64,000 bases of DNA from an uncultured bacterium (GTDB lineage: Bacteria > Patescibacteriota > Minisyncoccia > Phycocordibacterales > UBA6065), in the NCBI GenBank assembly GCA_963841935.1, contig CAWJEP010000001.1, positions 141,302 through 205,301 on the forward strand, read 5' to 3'. The notes under the pieces are model-generated. The model worked only from the letters and a program-made list of their open reading frames with translations. It was not told the DNA's origin and searched no databases. Position numbers and translations under genes: made by a program. This document shows, piece after piece, positions 9,279-63,134 of the stretch (its first letter is position 1; every line of letters begins with the position of its first letter).

Positions 9279-9743
9279 ATGAAAAATAAAGGTTTCACTC
9301 TCATCGAACTTCTCGTCGTCATTGCCATCATCGGCATTCTATCGGCGATAGTGCTCGCGTCTCTCGACACGGCGAGGAGCAAGGGTCAGGACGCCGCCGC
9401 TCGCGCCGACCTAGACGACGCTCGCGCTCAAGCGGAAAATTTTTATGATTCAAATGGCGTAAGTTATTCCGGAGTTTGTACTACCGCCGCGAACAACACG
9501 AAACCAGGTATCTTGGATATGATGAACGGCGCCGCTTCAGCTGAAGGGGGTACATATACGCCCGGCGCGGCACAAGGGTCAGCGACCGGTGTCGTGGTTT
9601 GTCACGACGAGGCATCGTCTTGGGCCGCAGCGACTCCTCTAAAAAATCCCGTCAACGGCGCGAGTTATTGGTGCGTGGATAACACGGGCACTTCTACCGC
9701 GGCAGTATCCGGTCTCGTCTCAAATTCCTACACTTGCCCCTAG
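9279..9743 (+). CDS. pilA: Type IV major pilin (prepilin with N-methylation motif)
   Basis: MKNKGFTLIELLVVIAIIGIL class III signal peptide; C-terminal cysteine pair. Confidence 0.8.
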   Translation: MKNKGFTLIELLVVIAIIGILSAIVLASLDTARSKGQDAAARADLDDARAQAENFYDSNGVSYSGVCTTAANNTKPGILDMMNGAASAEGGTYTPGAAQGSATGVVVCHDEASSWAAATPLKNPVNGASYWCVDNTGTSTAAVSGLVSNSYTCP

Positions 9744-9764
9744 TTTTTTTGATTCTTTCGCGAA

Positions 9765-9803
9765 AACCCGTCCGCCGGCCGGCGGACGGGTTTTTGTTTT
9801 TTT
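9765..9803 (+). terminator. Rho-independent terminator after pilA
   Basis: Perfect 12-bp GC-rich stem CCCGTCCGCCGG/CCGGCGGACGGG followed by a T-run. Confidence 0.75.
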
Positions 9804-9828
9804 CGGTAAAATATAAGATAATGTAACT

Positions 9829-10248
9829 ATGAAAAGAGGTTTCACTCTCATCGAACTTCTCGTCGTCATTGCCATCATCGGCATTCTATCGGCGATAGTG
9901 CTCGCGTCTCTCGACACGGCGAGGAGCAAGGGCGCGACCGCTTCTCTATATTCGGCTTTTCATCAGCTCGCGAATCAAGCGAGCATATATGAAAGTTCAA
10001 ACTCTAGTTTCGGCGCGAGTGTTTCCACTTGCAATGCCGGCGTCTTTTCCGACCCGATAATTCAATCTGCGGAGGCGAGCATAATTACCAACGCCGCCGC
10101 CGGCGCCACGCTCACGTGTTATACCAACGCCGCGGGCACGCAGTGGGCCATATCGGTCTCGGCGCTTCAGACTGGCGGTACATGGTGCGAAGACGACTCT
10201 TCGGCTTTTCGCGCCACCGTCGCGGAGCCGAGTGGCGTGTGCTCTTAA
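9829..10248 (+). CDS. Second type IV pilin paralog
   Basis: First ~35 codons nucleotide-identical to pilA (9291-9405 vs 9838-9935); C-terminal half divergent. Confidence 0.8.
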   Translation: MKRGFTLIELLVVIAIIGILSAIVLASLDTARSKGATASLYSAFHQLANQASIYESSNSSFGASVSTCNAGVFSDPIIQSAEASIITNAAAGATLTCYTNAAGTQWAISVSALQTGGTWCEDDSSAFRATVAEPSGVCS

Positions 10249-10252
10249 CAAT

Positions 10253-10714
10253 ATGAATAAGGCTTTCGAAAAAATGCGCATTTCGGGTTTTACTCTGGTA
10301 GAGCTCATGATAGTTTTGGCTATCATCGGTATTTTGACCGCGGTTGTCGCGGCTTCGACCAACGCCGCACACCAAGGCGCTCGCGACGAGCGCCGCCAGG
10401 CCGACCTCAAAGAAATTCAAATAGACCTCGCGCAATACGATAACTATTATGGCTACTATCCGGCGTCTTTAAACGCCATGTCGAGCTTCCTTGTCGGCGG
10501 ACAAGGAAGCATTCCCCTGGACCCTCTGACTAGCCAGTCATATTTTTACGCTCCCATAGGCACCAATCCCAACTATTCTTCTTATTGTGTCGGCGCGACG
10601 CTTGAGATTCAGACGCCGGACGGCAACGCTATGTCTGTTTGCACGGCTTCGCCGAACAACGTCGTTCTTCCTCAAGGTTCGACCGTGAATTATATGCAAC
10701 AGCCGCCGCAATGA
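10253..10714 (+). CDS. Prepilin-type pseudopilin
   Basis: GFTLVELMIVLAIIGIL motif; start ambiguous (ATG 10253 or 10274); stop overlaps the pilD start (ATGA). Confidence 0.65.
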   Translation: MNKAFEKMRISGFTLVELMIVLAIIGILTAVVAASTNAAHQGARDERRQADLKEIQIDLAQYDNYYGYYPASLNAMSSFLVGGQGSIPLDPLTSQSYFYAPIGTNPNYSSYCVGATLEIQTPDGNAMSVCTASPNNVVLPQGSTVNYMQQPPQ

Positions 10715-11493
10715 TTTTCGCGATAATCCTTTTTGTTCTCGGTGCCATTGTCGGAAGTTTTCTCAACGTCGTCATTGTCCGACTCGGCACTGGGTGCTCT
10801 ATTGTCCGCGGCCGTTCGAAATGTTTTTCCTGCGGACACAAACTCGTTTGGTACGATGTTGTGCCTTTTTTCTCGTATATTTTTCTTGGAAGAAAGTGTC
10901 GCTATTGCGGTAGCAAGATTTCCGCGAGATATTTCGTCGTTGAACTAGTGACGGCGGTTCTATTCTCCGCGACGGCTTTTTCCGGCATGCCTTCGACATT
11001 TCTTGGCCTGATTTTTCTTTTGCTTTCTCTTTCCATAATTTCTATCTTTGTCGCCATCGCTTTTTATGATTTTCGCCACAAAATCATTCCAGATGTTTTG
11101 TCTTACGCCGCCGCGCTTTGCGCTTTGTTTTTTTCCGTACTGACGATAATTTCCGCAGGCGCCACCTGGTGGCGCCTGCTTTCAGGCCTTATCGTTGCTT
11201 CTCCGTTTTTTTTCTTCTGGCTTGTATCAAAAGGCAAGTGGATGGGACTCGGAGACGCCAAGCTGTCTCTTTCAATCGGTTGGTGGTTGGGAATTTCTCT
11301 TTCCCTCGGCGCGCTCATATCGGCGGTTTTTTCCGGCGCTATTTTCGGCGTGGGAATTCTTTTTGCAGAAAAAATACGCGCGGGCAATGTTAAGTGGGGA
11401 AAACATGAGATACCTTTCGGGCCGTTTTTGATTTTTGGGGCTCTGATTTCGTATTTTTTCGGCGTCTCCATATTCACTTTTATCAGGTTATAA
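10711..11493 (+). CDS. pilD: Prepilin peptidase PilD (A24 family)
   Basis: Zinc-binding CxxC...CxxC (CFSCGHK...CRYCGSK), multiple TM helices, conserved Asp region. Confidence 0.85.
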   Translation: MIFAIILFVLGAIVGSFLNVVIVRLGTGCSIVRGRSKCFSCGHKLVWYDVVPFFSYIFLGRKCRYCGSKISARYFVVELVTAVLFSATAFSGMPSTFLGLIFLLLSLSIISIFVAIAFYDFRHKIIPDVLSYAAALCALFFSVLTIISAGATWWRLLSGLIVASPFFFFWLVSKGKWMGLGDAKLSLSIGWWLGISLSLGALISAVFSGAIFGVGILFAEKIRAGNVKWGKHEIPFGPFLIFGALISYFFGVSIFTFIRL

Positions 11494-11500
11494 TGAAAGG

Positions 11501-12091
11501 ATGAAATCGGGTTTCACGCTCATAGAGCTTCTCGTCACCATAAGCATATTCATCATCATCACGTCCGTGGCGGTGTTAAACAACAACCAATTCAACTCGA
11601 GCATCTTGCTCACCAACCTCGGATACGAGATAGCTCTTTCGGTTCGCCAAGCCCAAGTCTACGGCATCACGGTCAAGGCACCGACCGCTTGTCAGCCGGG
11701 AGACATATCGTGCGATTTTAGTTCCGGCTACGGCGTCCATTTCGACATAACAAACCCCGCGCAATATATTTTGTTCGAAGACAAAGGTCCGAATCCCAGC
11801 CACATATACGCTGCCGGCGAACTTCTCGAAAATTATTCGTTGGGTCGAGGTTACACTCTGAAAAAACTCTGTGTCTTGTCAAACAATACCTATCATTCAG
11901 TCAACACGCTCGACGTGTCTTTTATTCGTCCGGAACCGGAGGCTTGGGTTTCTAGCAATACGGATTCTCCGGGACTTACGGAAGCCGACATATATATTCA
12001 AGACCCGCAGCGTATAAGCGACAGGGTAATTATTATCGAGCCGACGGGACAGATTTCCGTGGAGGATACCGACGCCAATCTTTGTCATTAA
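11501..12091 (+). CDS. Minor pilin/pseudopilin (prepilin N-terminus)
   Basis: MKSGFTLIELLVTISIF motif. Confidence 0.65.
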   Translation: MKSGFTLIELLVTISIFIIITSVAVLNNNQFNSSILLTNLGYEIALSVRQAQVYGITVKAPTACQPGDISCDFSSGYGVHFDITNPAQYILFEDKGPNPSHIYAAGELLENYSLGRGYTLKKLCVLSNNTYHSVNTLDVSFIRPEPEAWVSSNTDSPGLTEADIYIQDPQRISDRVIIIEPTGQISVEDTDANLCH

Positions 12092-12095
12092 ATTT

Positions 12096-12689
12096 ATGAA
12101 ATTCTTTTATCAACCATATTTACGCGGTAAAAAGAAAGGTTTCACTCTCATCGAAATGCTCGTGTCTGTGGCCATATTCACTCTCGTGATGCTTATTACC
12201 ACGAGCTCGATTTTCGTTATTATTGCTTCGGACAAAAAAGCCGAATCGCTCAAATCGGTCATGGACAACTTGAGTTTCGCTCTTGAGAGCATGACGAGAA
12301 ATATTCGTACGGGTTCCGAATACACTTGCCTCACGGTTTTCGGGGGCGCCACCTCCGTCGTCTTAGGCAACAACTGTTCGGGCGGCGACCAGGGTTTTCA
12401 GTTTGTTTCGAACCAACAAGCGTACAACGGCAATCCCATCGTGGTTCAATATTATCTTTGGCAGAATCGGATTTGGGAGGACGAGACGAATTCAGACTGG
12501 ACCGCTCCGGTCGCCATTACCGCGCCGGAAATCAACGTCTCGTCGCTTCAGTTTTATCTCGTCGGCGCCGGCAAGGACACGTTTCAGCCCAGAGTCCTCA
12601 TGTCCGTCATAGGCACCGCCGGCACTTCGAATACCGAGACAAATTTCGATATTCAGACGACATTGTCGCAAAGACAGATTGATTCTTAA
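12096..12689 (+). CDS. Minor pilin/pseudopilin
   Basis: KKGFTLIEMLVSVAIFTLV motif. Confidence 0.65.
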   Translation: MKFFYQPYLRGKKKGFTLIEMLVSVAIFTLVMLITTSSIFVIIASDKKAESLKSVMDNLSFALESMTRNIRTGSEYTCLTVFGGATSVVLGNNCSGGDQGFQFVSNQQAYNGNPIVVQYYLWQNRIWEDETNSDWTAPVAITAPEINVSSLQFYLVGAGKDTFQPRVLMSVIGTAGTSNTETNFDIQTTLSQRQIDS

Positions 12690-13302
12690 TATGAATAAAA
12701 AATTTAACATTAAAAACAAAGGTTTTACTCTGGTCGAAACGCTCGTGGCCATCGCCATTCTTTCTTTGGCCATCACCGGCCCCATGGTCATCGCTCAAAA
12801 AGGCGTTTCTTCGTCGATATACGCTCGCGACGAAGTTACGGCGTTTTATCTCGCCCAAGAAGCCGTGGAATATGTTCGAAATGTGCGCGATACCAATCGC
12901 ATCGCCGGCTATGGCAGCGACTGGCTTTCGCAATTTACCGCCGCGAACTGCGTCGATACCGGTAGTCAGCGCTGTCAGATAAACGCCATCGAAAATTTTG
13001 ACGTTCCTTCCAAGGAACCGGAAGCCATTTCGGAATGCAGTACTTTGCCGAAATCCGGTGGCGTGGATGTTTGCTCGCCCATAGAATTTGATTCGAGTCC
13101 GTCGAGAAATTTGTACGGGTATCCAGAGCCCGATACTTCGGCAGACGCCTGGGCGCCGACAGTATTTACGCGCACCGTGGACATAAAAAAAGAACCGAAC
13201 AATCCAAACGAAGCGGTAATTACCGTGACGATTTCTTGGCAGACGAATATTTTCATTCCTCCGGAATCTTTTACTATTTCCGAACATATTTTTGCTTTCT
13301 AA
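12679..13302 (+). CDS. Minor pilin/pseudopilin (PilV-like)
   Basis: NKGFTLVETLVAIAILSLAITGPM motif. Confidence 0.65.
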   Translation: MILNMNKKFNIKNKGFTLVETLVAIAILSLAITGPMVIAQKGVSSSIYARDEVTAFYLAQEAVEYVRNVRDTNRIAGYGSDWLSQFTAANCVDTGSQRCQINAIENFDVPSKEPEAISECSTLPKSGGVDVCSPIEFDSSPSRNLYGYPEPDTSADAWAPTVFTRTVDIKKEPNNPNEAVITVTISWQTNIFIPPESFTISEHIFAF

Positions 13303-13837: not shown

Positions 13838-15945
<2,108 letters not shown>

Positions 15946-16045: not shown

Positions 16046-16783
16046 ATGAGCACAACCACTGCTCCTGTTGTCACCGACGGTGAACTCGCGACGCTTGCTT
16101 CACGGCAAGTTGAGCTTTTCACGCGTTTTAAGAAAGGGGTTTACGCAAATCCCTCCGAAGTGCTGGACGGTATCCAGCTTCTCATCGAAGGCAAACAGCC
16201 CGAGGTCATCCCGACGGTCGTTTCTTCGGACACGAGTTCGGTCATCTCCGACTGGCAGGACTTCTACAAGAAGTTCTTCGGTCTCAATATCGATTTGTCG
16301 GGAGTCAAAATCCCCGAACACGCCCTCGGTTTCGATCGGTTGATTGTGGTCCCGCAAGGTATCACGCTCAATCAAGTTTGGAAGGTGTGTGCAAGGCAGT
16401 TCAACTGCTGGAAATACACCGACTCTGACCTCGATAGTGCTGTTCCCACGAACAACCGAGACCCAAAGAGTGGCGCCTACGCCATCTGGGTCCGCGATGT
16501 TGTCGAAGCTGACAAGGAGATGAAGAATCTCTCGGCGGACGACCTCAAGGAAAGGACAATCAAGGGGGTCACTCTCCTCGAACGTCTACTTCTTGAGCTC
16601 AAGTATTTCTCGGAGACGGGAAAACACTTGGACATTAGCAACTGGACCCTCTGTTCGGGTTCCCGCCATTCGGGCGGCTGCGTGCCCTGTGTGCGCTGGC
16701 TCGACGGCTGGCTCAAGGTCGACTGGTACTATGTCGGCGGTCGGTACGACGACCTTCGTTCGCGTGTAGCAGTTACGCTTTAA
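16046..16783 (+). CDS. DGR target protein 1 (variable region VR1 at C-terminus; CLec/FGE-like tail)
   Basis: Paralog of the 17468 and 50810 genes (shared N-terminal helix pattern). C-terminal 100 nt pairs with the Asn-rich repeat at 17026-17127 with adenine-biased mismatches. Start could be the TTG at 15965. Confidence 0.55.
   Translation: MSTTTAPVVTDGELATLASRQVELFTRFKKGVYANPSEVLDGIQLLIEGKQPEVIPTVVSSDTSSVISDWQDFYKKFFGLNIDLSGVKIPEHALGFDRLIVVPQGITLNQVWKVCARQFNCWKYTDSDLDSAVPTNNRDPKSGAYAIWVRDVVEADKEMKNLSADDLKERTIKGVTLLERLLLELKYFSETGKHLDISNWTLCSGSRHSGGCVPCVRWLDGWLKVDWYYVGGRYDDLRSRVAVTL
16668..16769 (+). other. Candidate variable region VR1
   Basis: Aligned to 17026-17127: 25 mismatches, 21 where the partner has A. 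Confidence 0.55.
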
Positions 16784-16850: not shown

Positions 16851-17025
16851 TAAAATTATTCCGGCTATTAAATTGATCCGCCGATGAGGCGGATAACGAT
16901 TTGCCATAAAAAAGAAACTGCCTGCTTCATCTACACAACGCCTCGTTCGGGGTACAAACGCAGAAAATTTTGACGAAAGATTTTCGGTGACACGGAAGGA
17001 TGAAAGCAGTACACGAGGTTCGCGC

Positions 17026-17341
<316 letters not shown>

Positions 17342-17467
17342 GTGAATTGCTACAGCAGAAAGTGCCGAAAAATTTAGACATTTTCTGCTGTGGCAAAGCT
17401 AAATTTGCGAGCCCAACAGCGGACACTGTTCTTATGAACAAGTCCGTCAGATGAAAGGATAACAACC

Positions 17468-18136
17468 ATGAGCGAATTAATGCTCGATGTTGGTCAGGCG
17501 CAGGAACTCAAACTGGCATTCCGTCGCGAAGGCGATTGGACGAACGAGGATATCAAAGCGCTCACCGAGCGCAAAGGTCTCCTCCGGCAGATTCTCGGGA
17601 TTGTCCGCGGCTTTGCGGAAATCACCGTGAAGAAAATCGGACTCTGGCGACGGTTTCTCGTTGGAGGCATCTCCCGCGACGAACTCATCACCAAGCTCGA
17701 CGAGGTTGGTGTTGCGAACACGGGACTGACATTCCGTGTGAGCGATTACGCCAAGGATCTCATGGCGCAGAAGGCATTCGTCATTTCGAAAGAGAAGATG
17801 GAAGCCGACTTCGTCATCGCGACTCCAAAGGATCTCGGTTTCACTGAGAATCCGACGACGGAGGAGCTCTTCAACGAGAAGAACCTCGCGTTCTACGGTC
17901 TCGAACTCTGTCGTGCCGATGATGGTCCGTCGATTCGGCTGTCCTACACGGATCAGCCGAACAGTGAATGGCTTCCGATAGCCATGAAGCCGATTTGCGG
18001 TTCTGACGGCGTACTGGGGCGTGTTCAACCTCGAGCGGGACGGTTCGGGGCTCTGGCTCTACGGCGACTGCTATGCCTATCCGCAGGGTCGGTGGGATGT
18101 CGGCGGTCGGCTTGTCTTCCGCGCTCGCAAGTTCTA
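17468..18136 (+). CDS. DGR target protein 2 (VR2 at C-terminus; 1-nt length difference puts VR out of frame)
   Basis: Good RBS AAAGGA. Body is in one frame to ...ICGSDG; the VR-encoded tail WGVFNLERDGSGLWLYGDCYAYPQGRWDVGGRLVFRARKF* is in the +1 frame, ending in a CLec/FGE-like GxRLVFRAR. Confidence 0.6.
17993..18130 (+). other. Variable region VR2
   Basis: 138 nt vs TR2 137 nt; about 14 substitutions, every one at a TR adenine (A to G or T); last 38 nt identical apart from one A/G. Confidence 0.8.
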
Positions 18137-18188
18137 AGAACTTGGAAATCAGTGCTTTAGCACTTGAAATCTTGGAACTTAGTTCTTC

Positions 18189-18458: not shown

Positions 18459-18595
18459 ATTTGCGATTCTGACGGCAACTGGAACGTGTTCAACCTCAAG
18501 CGGGACGATTCGGAGCTCTGGCTCAACGGCAACTACAATGCCAATCCGCAGGATCGGTGGGATGTCGGCGATCGGCTTGTCTTCCGCGCTCGCAA
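18459..18595 (+). other. Template repeat TR2
   Basis: Non-coding, AAC/AAT-rich, immediately upstream of the avd/RT genes; cognate of VR2. Confidence 0.8.
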
Positions 18596-18601
18596 CCCTC
18601 T

Positions 18602-19015
18602 TCATTTCTCTCCGGATTTTTCCGGAGAGTTTTGTTTTACAATTTGTCCAAGCCATCCGCCAAGCATTTTTCCGGCTCCATCTAAAATTTCTGAAAGAGT
18701 CTCGTATTTTTTGTCGCTTATTGATTTTGTTTCCCATAGAACCATGAGAAGTATTTTTATAGTATCTATTTTTCTCGTCGCAAGTTTAATCCACGGTATT
18801 TTTTCTTCTTTCGATAAAAATGTTGCCGTTACCGTTGCTTCTATTGTTTCGATAAACAATTTATCCAGCCGATTTCCAAGCGAATATTTCTGCGTTTTTA
18901 CTAATTTCTCGTGATACTCGTGCCAGAGTTTATATGCTGATTTAATTTTCTCTACCACTGGCAAAATCGCTCGGGGGGGGGGTAGCATTTGAAGAATGGT
19001 TCGGAGCATTTTCAC
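18602..19015 (-). CDS. avd: Avd-like accessory variability determinant (four-helix bundle, 23S rRNA IVS protein family)
   Basis: KYSLGNRLDKLFIETIEAT... and C-terminal SISDKKYETLSEILDGAGKMLGGWL match the IVS/Avd helix pattern. Probable start is the third Met (about 18988). Confidence 0.6.
   Translation of the reverse strand: MKMLRTILQMLPPPRAILPVVEKIKSAYKLWHEYHEKLVKTQKYSLGNRLDKLFIETIEATVTATFLSKEEKIPWIKLATRKIDTIKILLMVLWETKSISDKKYETLSEILDGAGKMLGGWLGQIVKQNSPEKSGEK
18973..18982. repeat. G10 homopolymer (C10 on the avd coding strand)
   Basis: Ten consecutive G; encodes PPP at avd codons 3-6 and lies 14-23 nt upstream of the RT start codon. Confidence 0.9.
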
Positions 19016-19979
19016 TCATACATACGATGATATCATCTCCGTCGAAAATCTTTTAGCTGCGTGGCGTGAATTTATTCGTGGCAAGAAAAATAAAAAAGAC
19101 GTCGAAGAATTTCAGTTTCGTCTTATGGACAATATTCTCGATTTGCATCTAGATTTAAAAAACAAAACATATACTCACGGCATATATCACGCTTTCAATA
19201 TAAATGATCCTAAACCGAGAAATATTCACAAAGCCACAGTACGAGACAGATTGCTCCATCACGCTATACACAGAGTTTCATATCCATTTTTCGACAAAAC
19301 GTTTATCGCTGATTCATATTCGTGCAGATTAAATAAAGGAACTCATAAAGCAATCAAAAGATTTATTTCTTTCAGTCGAAAGGTTTCAAAAAATAACACA
19401 AAAACGTGTTGGATTTTGAAATGCGATATACGGAAATTCTTTGCGAGTATAGACCATAGGATTCTCATTTCGATTTCGAAGAAATATATTCATAACGGAA
19501 ATATTGTCTGGATTATGGAAAACATAATCGGAAGTTTTGAAACAAAAAATGGTGTCGGACTTCCACTCGGTAATCTGACATCACAACTTTTTGTGAATGT
19601 TTATATGAATGAATTCGACCAATTTATGAAACACAGAATCAAAGCGAAATATTACATTCGATATGCCGATGATTTTGTGACATTGTCGCATGACAAAAAA
19701 TATCTTGAAAATCTGATACCAAAAATTTCTAAATTTCTTTCGGAAAAATTAAGATTATCTCTTCATCCTAATAAAGTCTTCATCAAAACTTTAGCCTCGG
19801 GCGTTGACTTCCTTGGTTGGATACATTTTCCAAATCACCGAGTATTACGGACGGCAACGAAAAAGAGAATGTTCAAAAGAATTTCAGAAAATTCGAAAGA
19901 AGAGACGGTTACTTCATATATTGGAATGCTCAAGTACGGAAATGCTTACATTTTAAAAGAACACATAAAAATGCTATAG
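18996..19979 (+). CDS. DGR reverse transcriptase
   Basis: RT motifs DIRKFFASIDH (motif A), GLPLGNLTSQLFVNVYMNEFD (domain 4 with the DGR-specific [IVL]GxxxSQ), YIRYADDFV (YxDD); 327 aa. Confidence 0.85.
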   Translation: MVRSIFTHTYDDIISVENLLAAWREFIRGKKNKKDVEEFQFRLMDNILDLHLDLKNKTYTHGIYHAFNINDPKPRNIHKATVRDRLLHHAIHRVSYPFFDKTFIADSYSCRLNKGTHKAIKRFISFSRKVSKNNTKTCWILKCDIRKFFASIDHRILISISKKYIHNGNIVWIMENIIGSFETKNGVGLPLGNLTSQLFVNVYMNEFDQFMKHRIKAKYYIRYADDFVTLSHDKKYLENLIPKISKFLSEKLRLSLHPNKVFIKTLASGVDFLGWIHFPNHRVLRTATKKRMFKRISENSKEETVTSYIGMLKYGNAYILKEHIKML

Positions 19980-49831: not shown

Positions 49832-50671
49832 ATGAAAAAAGACACATCGTGGGGAAATGTCGCCGACCGTTACGACGAAGTCGTCTCGGACGCCGATTCA
49901 TATCAAAAAAAAGTCATTTTGCCGAATATCTCGCGTCTCGTCTCGCCGAGAAACGGTTTGCGCGTGCTTGATCTCGCCTGCGGACAGGGATTTTTTTCCC
50001 ACGAGCTCGCCAAGGCTGGCGCGCAGGTCGTCGGGGTGGATGTTTCGAAAGAGTTAGTTGCGCTCGCTCGAAAAAAGGCGGGTTCTGCGGAACACGGATA
50101 TTTTTCTGCTGAAAAATTCCTCGTGCTCGCGCCGTCGCGCTCGCAAGTTTCCGCAGAGCCCGCTTTCTTTCTCGCTCGCGCCGATGATTTATCCGTTCTC
50201 GGCCAAAAGAAATTTGACGTGGCTATTTGTATTCTCGCTATTCAAAACATCGAGGATATTTCCAAAACTTTCAAAGAAGTCTCGCGCGTTTTGGAAAAAA
50301 ACGGGAAATTCGTCATAGTTCTCAATCATCCGGCGTTTCGCGTGCCGAAAGAATCTTCTTGGGGTTTTGATGAAACGACAAAGACGCAATATCGCCGTGT
50401 GGACGAATATTTATCGGAAAGCCGCGCTGAAATAGATATGAATCCCGGCCGTGAGTCCACCGATGAGGCGGAGCAAAAGACGATTTCATTTCATAGGCCG
50501 CTTCAGGTGTATTCAAAAACTTTGGCGAATGCCGGCTTCGCCATCTCCCGCATTGAGGAATGGATATCTCACAAACAAAGCGAAAAAGGTCCTCGCCAAA
50601 TCGCCGAAAACAAATCCCGCAAAGAGATTCCCCTTTTTATGTGTCTTGAGTGCGTGAAAACTGAAAAATAA
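49832..50671 (+). CDS. Class I SAM-dependent methyltransferase
   Basis: LDLACGQGFF motif I. Confidence 0.7.
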   Translation: MKKDTSWGNVADRYDEVVSDADSYQKKVILPNISRLVSPRNGLRVLDLACGQGFFSHELAKAGAQVVGVDVSKELVALARKKAGSAEHGYFSAEKFLVLAPSRSQVSAEPAFFLARADDLSVLGQKKFDVAICILAIQNIEDISKTFKEVSRVLEKNGKFVIVLNHPAFRVPKESSWGFDETTKTQYRRVDEYLSESRAEIDMNPGRESTDEAEQKTISFHRPLQVYSKTLANAGFAISRIEEWISHKQSEKGPRQIAENKSRKEIPLFMCLECVKTEK

Positions 50672-50697
50672 GCTTATTTTTCAGTATTTTTTGACCT

Positions 50698-50727
50698 ATT
50701 GACAAAATAGCCATATTTGGTATATAA
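50698..50727 (+). promoter_or_regulatory. Consensus sigma70 promoter copy 3 (TTGACA-N18-TATAAT)
   Basis: Same 60-bp module (CTATTGACAAAATAGCCATATTTGGTATATAAT ... ATAGAACATTGAAA) as 15880 and 17277. Confidence 0.6.
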
Positions 50728-50809
50728 TTTGGAGTGAATAGAACATTGAAAAATCTTGCATTCCGCAAGACCTCTCTCGTTCGTTCGATAAAAAAAAGGA
50801 GATGACGCC

Positions 50810-51418
50810 ATGAATAACATCATGTCCCCATCAGTTAGCGAAATCACAGCTGGTCAGATTGGCAAGCTTCAGGAAATCCTCGCTGCGCGTTTGCGTAAGT
50901 CAGGACTCCAGAGCGACGCTGTCCAACAGGTTCTCGAAAATCAAGGTGACGAAGTTGCCGACGAGATGGTCGGCGCCGTCCGTCGTCGTGTCGAAGCGGT
51001 CAGTAATATGATCGTTCGCCGTGTCACGGTCAACCGCTCTCGTTCTCCGCGCAATATGATCGCGGCGACAAAGAGAGCCGAGTATCTCGACAATAGCGTG
51101 GTGAAGACGATGCCGAGAAACGAGGGCGACGAAGTGGATGTATTCTTCTTCAAGGTCGGCCGGGATGTTCCCGTTGCCGACTTGGCGAAGGAGTATGAAC
51201 TCCGCGGCCTTGTGCCCGATCATTACGCCCAAGGCGCGGTGAACGAGGTCGATCCAGCATTTGCCGCCGAGCATCCGAACAGCACCCAGTGGCAGGACGA
51301 GGACGGCAACTTCTGCTATCTCACGTTCTTCAGGTGGGACGGCAAGCGCTACGTGGACTGCCGCCGCTACAACGCCGGTTGGCGCGTCCACTGGTGGTTT
51401 GCGGGGGTTCGCAAGTAA
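50810..51418 (+). CDS. Paralog of the DGR target family (possible remote/dormant target)
   Basis: Same promoter and 5'UTR element; RBS AAAGGAG; N-terminal helix pattern like targets 1 and 2; C-terminus ...GWRVHWWFAGVRK*; the 3' end TCGCAAGTAAGAACTAGG resembles the target-2 3' flank. Confidence 0.55.
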   Translation: MNNIMSPSVSEITAGQIGKLQEILAARLRKSGLQSDAVQQVLENQGDEVADEMVGAVRRRVEAVSNMIVRRVTVNRSRSPRNMIAATKRAEYLDNSVVKTMPRNEGDEVDVFFFKVGRDVPVADLAKEYELRGLVPDHYAQGAVNEVDPAFAAEHPNSTQWQDEDGNFCYLTFFRWDGKRYVDCRRYNAGWRVHWWFAGVRK

Positions 51419-51473
51419 GAACTAGGCACTCGGAATTCAGGCCTTTGGACTTAGAAACTTAGAACTTGGTTCT

Positions 51474-51503
51474 GGCGGCGCATCGAAAGATGCGCCGTTT
51501 TTT
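51474..51503. terminator. Bidirectional rho-independent terminator
   Basis: GGCGCATC-GAAA-GATGCGCC followed by TTTTTT; sits between convergent genes. Confidence 0.7.
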
Positions 51504-52764
51504 ATTTCACATCATTGAGCGAAAGAATGACTCGGATGCCGTAGAACATCAAAATGCCGAGGACGACGAGGAGGCCTTGAATATCCGTGCCGATGAGGAT
51601 GAGAGTGGCGGCGACCGAGCTTATGATATAGGCGAGAGGACGAGCCGTTCGGAATAGGGTGATCTTTTCTATGTCTCTGCCGTTGATTTTCTTGAAGAAA
51701 TAAGTGTCGGACATTACTTCCGCGGACGCCGCGCCGACGCGAGTGGTAAATAGCAAAATTCCCCAAATGAAAACATTGCCGTCGCCGTATATGGCGCAGA
51801 GCAAAGTGCCGACCGCCATTATGAGAAACCCGAGAGCGATAAATCTTTTCTCACCCCAGCCGTGGTCTGAATAAAATCCTTCAGGTATGCCGACCAAGAC
51901 GAAGGGCAAAAGCATTATCGAAAAAAGTATGCCGATGGTCGTCCATGAGAATCCTATGTATTGGTGGAGATATATCGGCGTGTAAATAATCATCCACGCG
52001 TAGAAGAATTGAACGAGGATTTCGCAAATATAAATACCGCGCATATCTCGGTCTTTGAGAAATTCCGATATAGCCGTCCAGAAACGCGCTTTGGAATATT
52101 CAGGGTCTTTAAATCCCTGAAAACTTCCGGCGATGAGAACGATTGATAGAGTGAGAATGCCGGCGATGGCGAAGAAGACGCGAGAAAAATTATCACTCGA
52201 GCCGAGGAGAAGCGCCGCTATAAGCGGCGCGAGGAGCCAGCCGAGGTTGTCGGCGGTGTAATAAATACCGCGAATGTCGCCGGTTTTGTTTTGGGTGGAG
52301 AAATCCTCAAGCAAGGCGTCGAGGGTAAAATTGATGAGTGCAACAGAAGCGAAGCTCGTCATAAAAAATACTATGACGGCAAGAGTGCCCGGCGCGAAGG
52401 CGAGGACGATGAGCGAGACGAATTCAATGAGACAGAGGGCGAGCGTTACGACAATATTGCCGAAGCGCCGCAGAACTCGGAGGACGCAGGCGAAAGCGAT
52501 AAGAGCAAGAATGGAAGCGGCGGTGTAGACCACGCCGACCATGGCGTTGCCTGTAAATTGAGCGAGGAATGTTGAAGTGATGTATGTCGGAATCGCTGAA
52601 TGAAGGTTGAAAAGAAAAGCGATGAGGTAGAGCGCAAACCTGCTTTTTTTCCATGTCGTGTCGGGCATGGGAAAAGTATAACCTGCCAGTGTCAGGCGGG
52701 CAAAAGAAAAAGCGAACATATTTCTACGCTCGCTCTGATTTTGATTCAGACTTTTTGAGGACAA
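51502..52764 (-). CDS. MFS transporter (12 TMS)
   Basis: Hydropathy pattern, 420 aa. Confidence 0.7.
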   Translation of the reverse strand: MSSKSLNQNQSERRNMFAFSFARLTLAGYTFPMPDTTWKKSRFALYLIAFLFNLHSAIPTYITSTFLAQFTGNAMVGVVYTAASILALIAFACVLRVLRRFGNIVVTLALCLIEFVSLIVLAFAPGTLAVIVFFMTSFASVALINFTLDALLEDFSTQNKTGDIRGIYYTADNLGWLLAPLIAALLLGSSDNFSRVFFAIAGILTLSIVLIAGSFQGFKDPEYSKARFWTAISEFLKDRDMRGIYICEILVQFFYAWMIIYTPIYLHQYIGFSWTTIGILFSIMLLPFVLVGIPEGFYSDHGWGEKRFIALGFLIMAVGTLLCAIYGDGNVFIWGILLFTTRVGAASAEVMSDTYFFKKINGRDIEKITLFRTARPLAYIISSVAATLILIGTDIQGLLVVLGILMFYGIRVILSLNDVK

Positions 52765-62597: not shown

Positions 62598-63134
62598 ATG
62601 ACAGAAAAAGAATACAAATCTTATAGAAATAAATATCGTCCCAAAAAGCTCAAAGCAATATTCATTGGAGAATCTCCTCCTAACAGTGGTAAGTATTTCT
62701 ATAAGCCGGAGGGAAAAATTTCTGAGCCTTTGTTTAAGAATTTTATGGAAGCGATGGATATTCCTCATTCTACTAAAGCTGAAGGACTCAAGGAGTTTGC
62801 AAGAAGGGGTTACTTCCTTATAGATGCGACTTACACGCCTGTTAACGGAATAAAGGACACATGGAAACGAACCGAGGCTATTTTCAGGGATTTCTGTAGT
62901 TTTTTCAAAGATCTAAGATTTACGGTCGGTAAGAACAAACACGTCCTTGTTGTTTTTGTAAAAGTAAATGTATTTGATTTATATGCACCTTTTATTAGAG
63001 GAGAATATAATATGATTGATGAACGTATTCCATTTCCGTCTCGTTGGAATCGAAAATCTTTTCTTAAAAAGATGAAACACCTACTTTCCGAGCTAGACTC
63101 GGATACCTCGGCAAGACGGTCGAAAAGTCGCTAG
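62598..63134 (+). CDS. Hypothetical protein
   Basis: ORF with AAATT...ATG context right after tRNA-Ser; no motif recognised. Confidence 0.35.
   Translation: MTEKEYKSYRNKYRPKKLKAIFIGESPPNSGKYFYKPEGKISEPLFKNFMEAMDIPHSTKAEGLKEFARRGYFLIDATYTPVNGIKDTWKRTEAIFRDFCSFFKDLRFTVGKNKHVLVVFVKVNVFDLYAPFIRGEYNMIDERIPFPSRWNRKSFLKKMKHLLSELDSDTSARRSKSR

Follow-up and report, generated by a model that had tools for sequence, protein, structure and literature searches.

The gene at 50810-51418 of the DNA analysed here, a stretch of 64,000 nucleotides referred to as the window, raises the question of whether it is the target of a diversity-generating retroelement (DGR) and, if so, whether its variable region is still being rewritten or has been retired. 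The DGR of the window, with target 1 (T1), target 2 (T2) and their template repeats (TR1, TR2), is located at 16-20 kb, and the gene in question, termed T3, lies 32 kb away. According to the original prediction, T3 is a third paralogous cassette that shares promoter, leader box, helix pattern and 3' flank with the two targets, ends in a C-type-lectin-like tail and either has been retired or depends on a template not yet seen. The features of T3 and of the resident DGR locus are collected in Table 1.

Table 1. Features of the T3 cassette and of the resident DGR locus, in positions of the window
Feature	Position	Strand	Remarks
Upstream cassette edge	50669..50686	+	TAAGCTTATTTTT, common to T3 and its nearest orphan relative L002 (upstream-region alignment)
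Promoter module	50687..50728	+	-35 TTGACA 50699-50704, 18-nt spacer, -10 TATAAT 50723-50728
Leader box	50738..50751	+	ATAGAACATTGAAA; first bases of predicted transcript; exact in all three cassettes
Short leader hairpin	50754..50770	+	TCTTGC-ATTCC-GCAAGA; stands in place of the long covarying hairpin of T2 and most family leaders
Shine-Dalgarno	50797..50802	+	inside family-conserved AAGGAGATGACGCCATG
T3 coding sequence	50810..51418	+	N-terminal helical hairpin, residues 14-65; C-type-lectin-like domain, residues 68-202
Variable region (VR), from family alignment	51313..51414	+	scaffold F.RW...R.V.C.R....W...WWFAGVR interleaved with NNY codons where family TRs have AAY
IMH-like VR 3' end	51392..51414	+	A-free stretch TGGTGGTTTGCGGGGGTTCGC, then AA; junction CGCAA/G versus CGCAA/C in TRs
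3' flank	51415..51473	+	homologous to T2 flank; small hairpin AGAAC-TTG-GTTCT at 51461-51473
Intrinsic terminator	51474..51505	+	GGCGGCGCATC-GAAA-GATGCGCCGTT, then T run; downstream cassette edge
Target 1	about 16047-16783		VR1 16658-16778; TR1 17017-17137
Target 2	17468 to about 18137		VR2 18013-18130; TR2 18478-18595
bAvd (PF22296)	18602-19015	-	E=2.8e-9, 37.9 bits, just below the Pfam 40-bit cutoff
RT (RVT_1)	18996-19979	+	E=1.8e-22

The T3 cassette and its family

As an expression cassette T3 is complete and self-contained, and consists of promoter, leader, a gene of C-type-lectin (CLec) fold with a C-terminal VR, an IMH-like end, a 3' flank and a terminator. The intact open reading frame encodes 202 amino acids; a Pfam domain is recognized neither in T3 nor in its family, and the AlphaFold model (pLDDT 93) adopts a C-type-lectin fold, in agreement with the lectin-like character proposed for the tail. 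T3 combines this fold with a VR at the C terminus, as expected of a DGR variable protein. Upstream, the edge of the cassette overlaps the stop codon of a methyltransferase gene, and downstream a terminator is predicted at 51474-51499.

The promoter of T3, a repeated module of 42 nt, is identical in sequence to the promoter of T2 and scores 12/12 against the sigma-70 consensus. The 30-nt promoter sequence TTGACAAAATAGCCATATTTGGTATATAAT occurs exactly at 50699 and 17286 and with one mismatch at 15889, that is in three copies with at most one mismatch in the 64-kb window where none is expected by chance, and the predicted copy of the promoter module upstream of T3 is thus real. Exactly three copies are likewise found of the 14-nt leader box, at 15929, 17326 and 50738, each exact, as had been stated for T3 and both DGR targets, and each beginning 9-10 nt past the -10 hexamer; variants of the box (AGAACCTTGAAA, AGTTCTTTGATA) follow the -10 hexamer in many members of the T3 family. 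The promoter and leader common to T3, T1 and T2 suggest, therefore, that T3 is co-regulated with targets 1 and 2.

A long leader hairpin, GCCAYAGCnnAAAG...CTTTnnGCTRTGGC, sits after the box and a (C)TTGCGA motif in the leader of T2 (17349-17394) and in the leaders of the family loci L003, L001, L031, L050 and others. Among 17 leaders, compensatory changes are observed in 15/20 of its predicted pairs. The leaders of T3 and L002 possess the short substitute hairpin only. Neither leader nor 3' flank has a match in Rfam, even at E<=1, and the long hairpin may represent an undescribed cis-regulatory element of DGR target genes.

The helix pattern and protein paralogy that had been claimed to connect T3 with T1 and T2 are not supported by comparison, as BLASTP of T3 gives E=0.14 against T2 and E=0.01 against T1, the latter over 21 aa only, and the profile-profile comparison of the T3 family with the T2 family by hhalign gives a probability of 0.3% (E=0.18). 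With protein paralogy to T1/T2 supported on neither count, what T3 has in common with targets 1 and 2 is, as judged by these alignments, promoter, leader box and 3' flank only, with a coding region that is not demonstrably paralogous. As to T2 itself, its N-terminal ~50 residues (17468-17620; MLDVGQAxELKLAFRREGDWTNEDIKAL...) recur at 55-80% identity as a module in many CPR proteins of ~200 aa (P0122-P0148), the C-terminal domains of which are mutually unrelated and in some cases end in ...RFLAVRK; this segment may serve them in common as an adaptor or for partner binding.

The 3' end of T3 is composed of an A-free GC-rich stretch of 21 nt, the CGCAA/G junction, small hairpins and a flank like that of T2, with a putative role as IMH. 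Local alignment of the T3 and T2 flanks yields a score of 44 versus 12.6 +/- 2.2 (mean, sd) for shuffled sequences, with 0/2000 shuffles reaching 44, and substantiates the proposed likeness of the two flanks. As had also been anticipated, T3 is nearer to the T2 flank (z=14.1) than to TR2, with which there is no significant similarity; versus the flanks of its own orthologs, z is about 3.

Homologs of T3, 116 of them full-length, with 43-80% identity and a family size of ~200 aa, are distributed across Patescibacteria; the closest is 80% identical, and no strain-level relative is among them. In the family alignment, the scaffold F.RW...R.V.[VC].R....W...WWFAGVRK is fixed (82-100% conservation at scaffold positions) with hypervariable positions between. 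At the ten AAY-templated positions, which display 10-15 residue types each, 1086/1094 residues (99.3%) are NNY-encodable, and the GAY-templated positions are occupied by D, G, V and A.

When species-representative genomes are scanned for VR/TR 3' ends, 79 loci are retrieved, and for ~44 family genes in these genomes a TR is located at +410 to +565 nt, with bAvd and RT after it. At TR-linked loci the VR differs from its TR by a median of 0 non-A and 17 A mismatches. For example, the ortholog of L001 (64% identical to T3) has its TR at +440 nt, with 15/15 VR/TR mismatches at TR adenines, followed by a second target with its own TR, bAvd and RT, while in L003 (63% identical) 19/19 mismatches are located at TR adenines (likewise 19/19 in L004) and the locus is syntenic with the DGR of the window, pilin genes, prepilin peptidase and ligA preceding the T3-type target. 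Metagenome contigs contribute 20 further TR-junction matches, 19 of which are in or consistent with the TR-Avd-RT layout, several on short contigs; the exception is L089.

T3 itself possesses NNY/GNY codons at all AAY/GAY template positions. Its last 100 nt are identical to the heterologous TR of L003 at 76/100 positions, and of the TR sites 15/29 adenines are mismatched as against 9/71 non-A sites (Fisher p=8e-5). The VR of T3, by this measure, bears the signature of adenine mutagenesis, namely codons of the kind written from AAY and GAY codons. The cognate TRs of the orthologs, the NNY signature and the adenine-biased divergence of T3 together identify it by homology, therefore, as a genuine DGR variable-protein gene and its C-terminal segment as the VR.

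The resident locus and the search for a template repeat

The genome of T3 harbours an RT and an accessory Avd, the identification of the latter being supported by homologs of 37-74% identity that accompany the RT at dozens of related loci. Mismatches between VR2 and TR2 fall at TR adenines in 12/12 cases. Those between VR1 and TR1 are mostly at TR adenines, with non-adenine mismatches at offset 5 (G/C), offset 14 (T/G) and in a cluster at offsets 29-32, which may reflect a degree of decay, a TR boundary other than the one assumed or errors in the consensus. A direct repeat of 201 nt with 95% identity (15742-15942 and 17139-17339) sets the 3' end of ligA, promoter and box before target 2; the DGR locus has therefore grown by tandem duplication of a unit of upstream gene tail, promoter, target and TR. 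The same kind of duplication is present in L001, there with the tail of a SIMPL gene.

Several peculiarities of the assembly are located in this region. At 18011-18014, VR2 reads GTAC versus AAC in TR2, a 1-nt insertion that puts the assembled T2 out of the VR frame and probably arose as an artefact of assembly or consensus calling where the VR is heterogeneous; the corrected T2 ends in ...RLVFRARKF with the stop codon at 18135-18137, and P0117, which is 94% identical, is in frame. In the window ligA is split into open reading frames at 13844-14551 and 14569-15900, while ligA of L003 is a single gene of 664 aa, and a run of about ten G is found at the Avd/RT junction (18975-18984); split and run suggest indel errors typical of long-read assemblies. 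Upstream of ligA and DGR, both the window and L003 possess a pilin/T2SS cluster, and at 9282-12746 of the window five genes open with a near-identical segment of ~35 nt that encodes a type IV pilin-like N-terminus, KGFTLIELLV.

A TR cognate to T3 would match 51313-51414, differ from it only at its own adenines and end in ...TTCGCAAC, and would be marked by TGGTGGTTTGCGGGGGTTCGCAAC. No such TR is found in the 64-kb window of the contig, which is reported as 226 kb. Ungapped A-tolerant scans of both strands of the window with probes of 129 nt and 60 nt return A-rich noise only, the best match having 38 non-A mismatches in 129 nt; the 23-nt A-poor end of the T3 VR is unique in the window even at 3 mismatches, and the TR-junction motif is present only at TR2. 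These three scans rule out a hidden T3 TR inside the window. TR1 and TR2 themselves show no significant similarity to T3 and, as predicted, do not align cleanly, having only the 10-nt GACGGCAACT in common with it, which is equalled by ~100/2000 shuffles; on this comparison, TR1 and TR2 cannot template the VR of T3.

Beyond the window, no TR fits T3 in either of the two public collections, species-representative genomes (the genome of T3 excluded) and metagenome contigs, the best having 9-11 non-A mismatches; the 20 metagenome loci with TR-type junctions all have at least 11 non-A mismatches to T3. The last open reading frame of the window matches one Logan contig of 4.5 kb, on which no DGR parts are found. 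A contig with the gene at 62598-63134 of the window is present in Logan run ERR11630400. The proposal of a DGR-target-type cassette that is retired or has an unseen template is thus borne out by TR, Avd and RT of the orthologs, the adenine-biased tail, the CLec fold and the lack of a TR in the window.

Orphan cassettes and the fate of T3

Among species-representative genomes, ~22 of ~66 family genes, about one third, are orphans that have no TR, Avd or RT downstream. L002 (76% identical), the nearest relative of T3 for which the genomic context is available, likewise lacks a TR and is located in a different neighbourhood. The homology between the two is confined to the cassette, from TAAGCTTATTTTT to the terminator, with the blastn window 50736-51509 as its high-identity part: leader and 3' flank are about 96-97% identical, the flank at 96% being conserved above the coding sequence, and the whole aligned cassette about 84%, with a scrambled VR and a promoter core of only about 55-60% identity. 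Pairs of orphan versus TR-linked genes are likewise homologous over no more than 0.7-1.2 kb, and the TR-less cassettes of the family are dispersed as units of roughly 0.8 kb. As orphans are scattered in the tree and pairs share only 0.7-1.2 kb, dispersal of TR-less cassettes has thus been recurrent.

Other origins of orphans were considered and rejected. Clustering scatters orphans among TR-linked members, which is incompatible with a separate non-diversified subfamily, and in the pairs tested homology stops at both cassette edges, which speaks against in-situ deletion of TR-Avd-RT. An mRNA retrocopy was considered for T3 because the high-identity homology with L002 spans box to terminator, but the weaker homology continues across the promoter as far as TAAGCTTATTTTT. 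Another route by which targets become orphans is illustrated by L089 (4580-5260) and L015 (tail ...WWFAGVRN). In these genes the VR directly abuts the TR-type junction (CGCAAC TCTCTTCATTTC), RT and Avd are absent from the vicinity, and the arrangement looks like a deletion by VR-by-TR recombination.

Because the promoter block of T3 carries CTATTGACAAAATAG, the last codons and stop of ligA at the DGR locus, and is identical to the T1/T2 promoter, the block is, by its sequence, derived from the ligA-adjacent DGR slot, from where it probably reached T3 by gene conversion. In a relative (L003) this slot is filled by the T3 ortholog with its own TR.

On balance T3 is probably, though by no means certainly, an orphaned, retired (frozen) target that has been separated from its TR. 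A copy of a target cassette of ~0.8 kb would have been dispersed without its TR, as repeatedly in the T3 family, and T3 would now encode a ligand-binding protein of frozen specificity, no longer rewritten by the retroelement but still expressed under the strong promoter and the leader that it shares with targets 1 and 2. How a frozen VR presents itself can be seen in the orphans L050 and L078, which originate from different species and are 94% identical in the VR tail as in the rest, with 3 nt differences in the tail, whereas TR-linked pairs that are 95-100% identical elsewhere have VR tails of only 58-78% identity; judged against such pairs, L050/L078 is an example of a frozen VR.

A contender of distinctly lower but still appreciable probability is that T3 is a live remote target with a third TR outside the window, either on its own or as part of a second DGR locus. 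Reverse transcription of this TR would be the task of the resident RT/Avd or of another such pair, and the adenine-mutagenised cDNA would home via the IMH-like end and the 3' flank. There is a precedent in the family, as in the MAG JARIGY01 (Candidatus Taylorbacteria) the orphan L070 differs by 1 non-A and 13 A mismatches from the TR of the L031 locus on another contig, and has 53 nt of promoter and box identical to those of the DGR-adjacent target L031; from the match to this TR it follows that true remote targets exist in the T3 family, and non-adjacent targets are established for DGRs in general (PMC5758913). The resident DGR looks active, since T2 and P0117, at 94% identity, diverge in the VR alone. 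The flank of T3, T2-like (z=14) and better conserved than the coding sequence, points in the same direction, as conservation of 96% could mean continued use as a DGR recognition element. The VR shows no sign of decay, because the foreign TR that fits it best differs by 9 non-A mismatches, which is the median for TR-linked VRs, and the VRs of T3, P0002 and P0003 are unlike each other at nearly every variable position, which favours a live over a retired T3.

On the other hand, the 64 kb contain no TR for T3, and the sole RT locus there has two TRs, each of which serves the adjacent gene. TRs of the relatives are always located immediately downstream of the family gene, and the window has no second family gene. 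In 21/22 orphan-bearing assemblies a TR with the required 3' end is lacking, a matching TR being present in one only, and neither public collection offers a TR that fits T3 better than stated above. Finally, the VR of the orphan pair L050/L078 is frozen where TR-linked pairs are scrambled. These observations are in line with T3 as a retired target.

A wider proposal, which is speculative and rather unlikely as a whole, is that Patescibacteria DGRs of the T3 lineage keep distributed, co-regulated target cassettes of ~0.8 kb, that T3 is live via a third TR and that the leader of box and hairpin is an undescribed cis-regulatory RNA by which expression of the DGR targets is controlled. The unit of such a system may comprise a strong promoter, the 5'-terminal box, an optional covarying hairpin, the CLec gene and a DGR-matched 3' recognition flank.

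It is very improbable that cDNA derived from TR2 or TR1 occasionally homes into T3, by which the whole VR would be swapped and not diversified. Such homing could proceed through the common TCGCAAG/TAAGAACT.GG end together with GACGGCAACT, as T3 and T2 have the CGCAA/G junction and the flank in common and GACGGCAACT is found within TR2 as well as a short way 5' of the T3 VR. However, the VR of T3 contains no TR2-like sequence, the A-free 20 nt before the junction are GGTTTGCGGGGGTTCGC in T3 versus GTCTTCCGCGCTCGC in T2, and the scaffold residues of the T3 family are intact, which disfavours a swap. That T3 is an ordinary paralog which was never diversified and merely received duplicated regulatory DNA, a reading to which the insignificant protein similarity to T1/T2 and the absence of a TR from the window might lend themselves, is refuted by the cognate TRs of the orthologs, the NNY positions and the adenine-biased divergence and retains next to no probability.

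Relation to known DGR systems

T3 was first recognized by the regulatory and flanking sequences that it shares with other targets, and its family then confirmed the assignment; within the DGR lineage of Patescibacteria (PMC8144416, PMC5758913) it is a target of CLec fold. For the 64-kb window itself this result is mainly one of annotation, in that the gene can be designated as DGR variable protein homolog (orphan VR) instead of generic hypothetical protein. Beyond annotation, the T3 system is suited to ask what becomes of hypervariable binding proteins once diversification stops and whether one retroelement can service dispersed targets, and the conserved architecture of promoter and leader may coordinate the expression of all DGR targets of a cell.

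With respect to its product, T3 can be compared with the C-type-lectin-fold DGR variable proteins Mtd of the Bordetella phage BPP-1 and TvpA of Treponema denticola. With respect to its location, it resembles the non-adjacent or remote DGR targets of the Treponema and Legionella type (Wu et al. 2018, PMC5758913), as tens of kb separate it from the RT of its replicon. By the definition of non-adjacent targets, the genome contains a TR from which the target differs by A-to-N changes only (PMC5758913), and in this respect T3 deviates, as no TR within the 64-kb window, TR1 and TR2 included, stands in this relation to it.

In the survey literature remote targets are stated not to be detectable (PMC8144416), and TR-less copies were not sought (PMC8144416, PMC5758913); DGR surveys pair the VR with a TR near the RT and therefore miss TR-less copies. 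What is added here, a modest advance, is the frequency of dispersed TR-less cassettes, the common promoter and box and the covarying leader hairpin.

The closest known counterparts are the cellular DGRs of Patescibacteria/CPR (clade 2, Roux et al. 2021, PMC8144416; CPR set, PMC5758913), which belong to the same host phylum as T3, and members of the T3 family derive from the RIFCSP and GW2011 CPR genomes used in these surveys. The window DGR is built of the same parts: bAvd is encoded by the minus strand and RT by the plus strand, and upstream of them lies the target, followed by the TR. Unlike in the surveyed CPR DGRs, the slots of the window locus are occupied by targets of two other types, with a separate TR for each, and the gene of the T3 family is detached.
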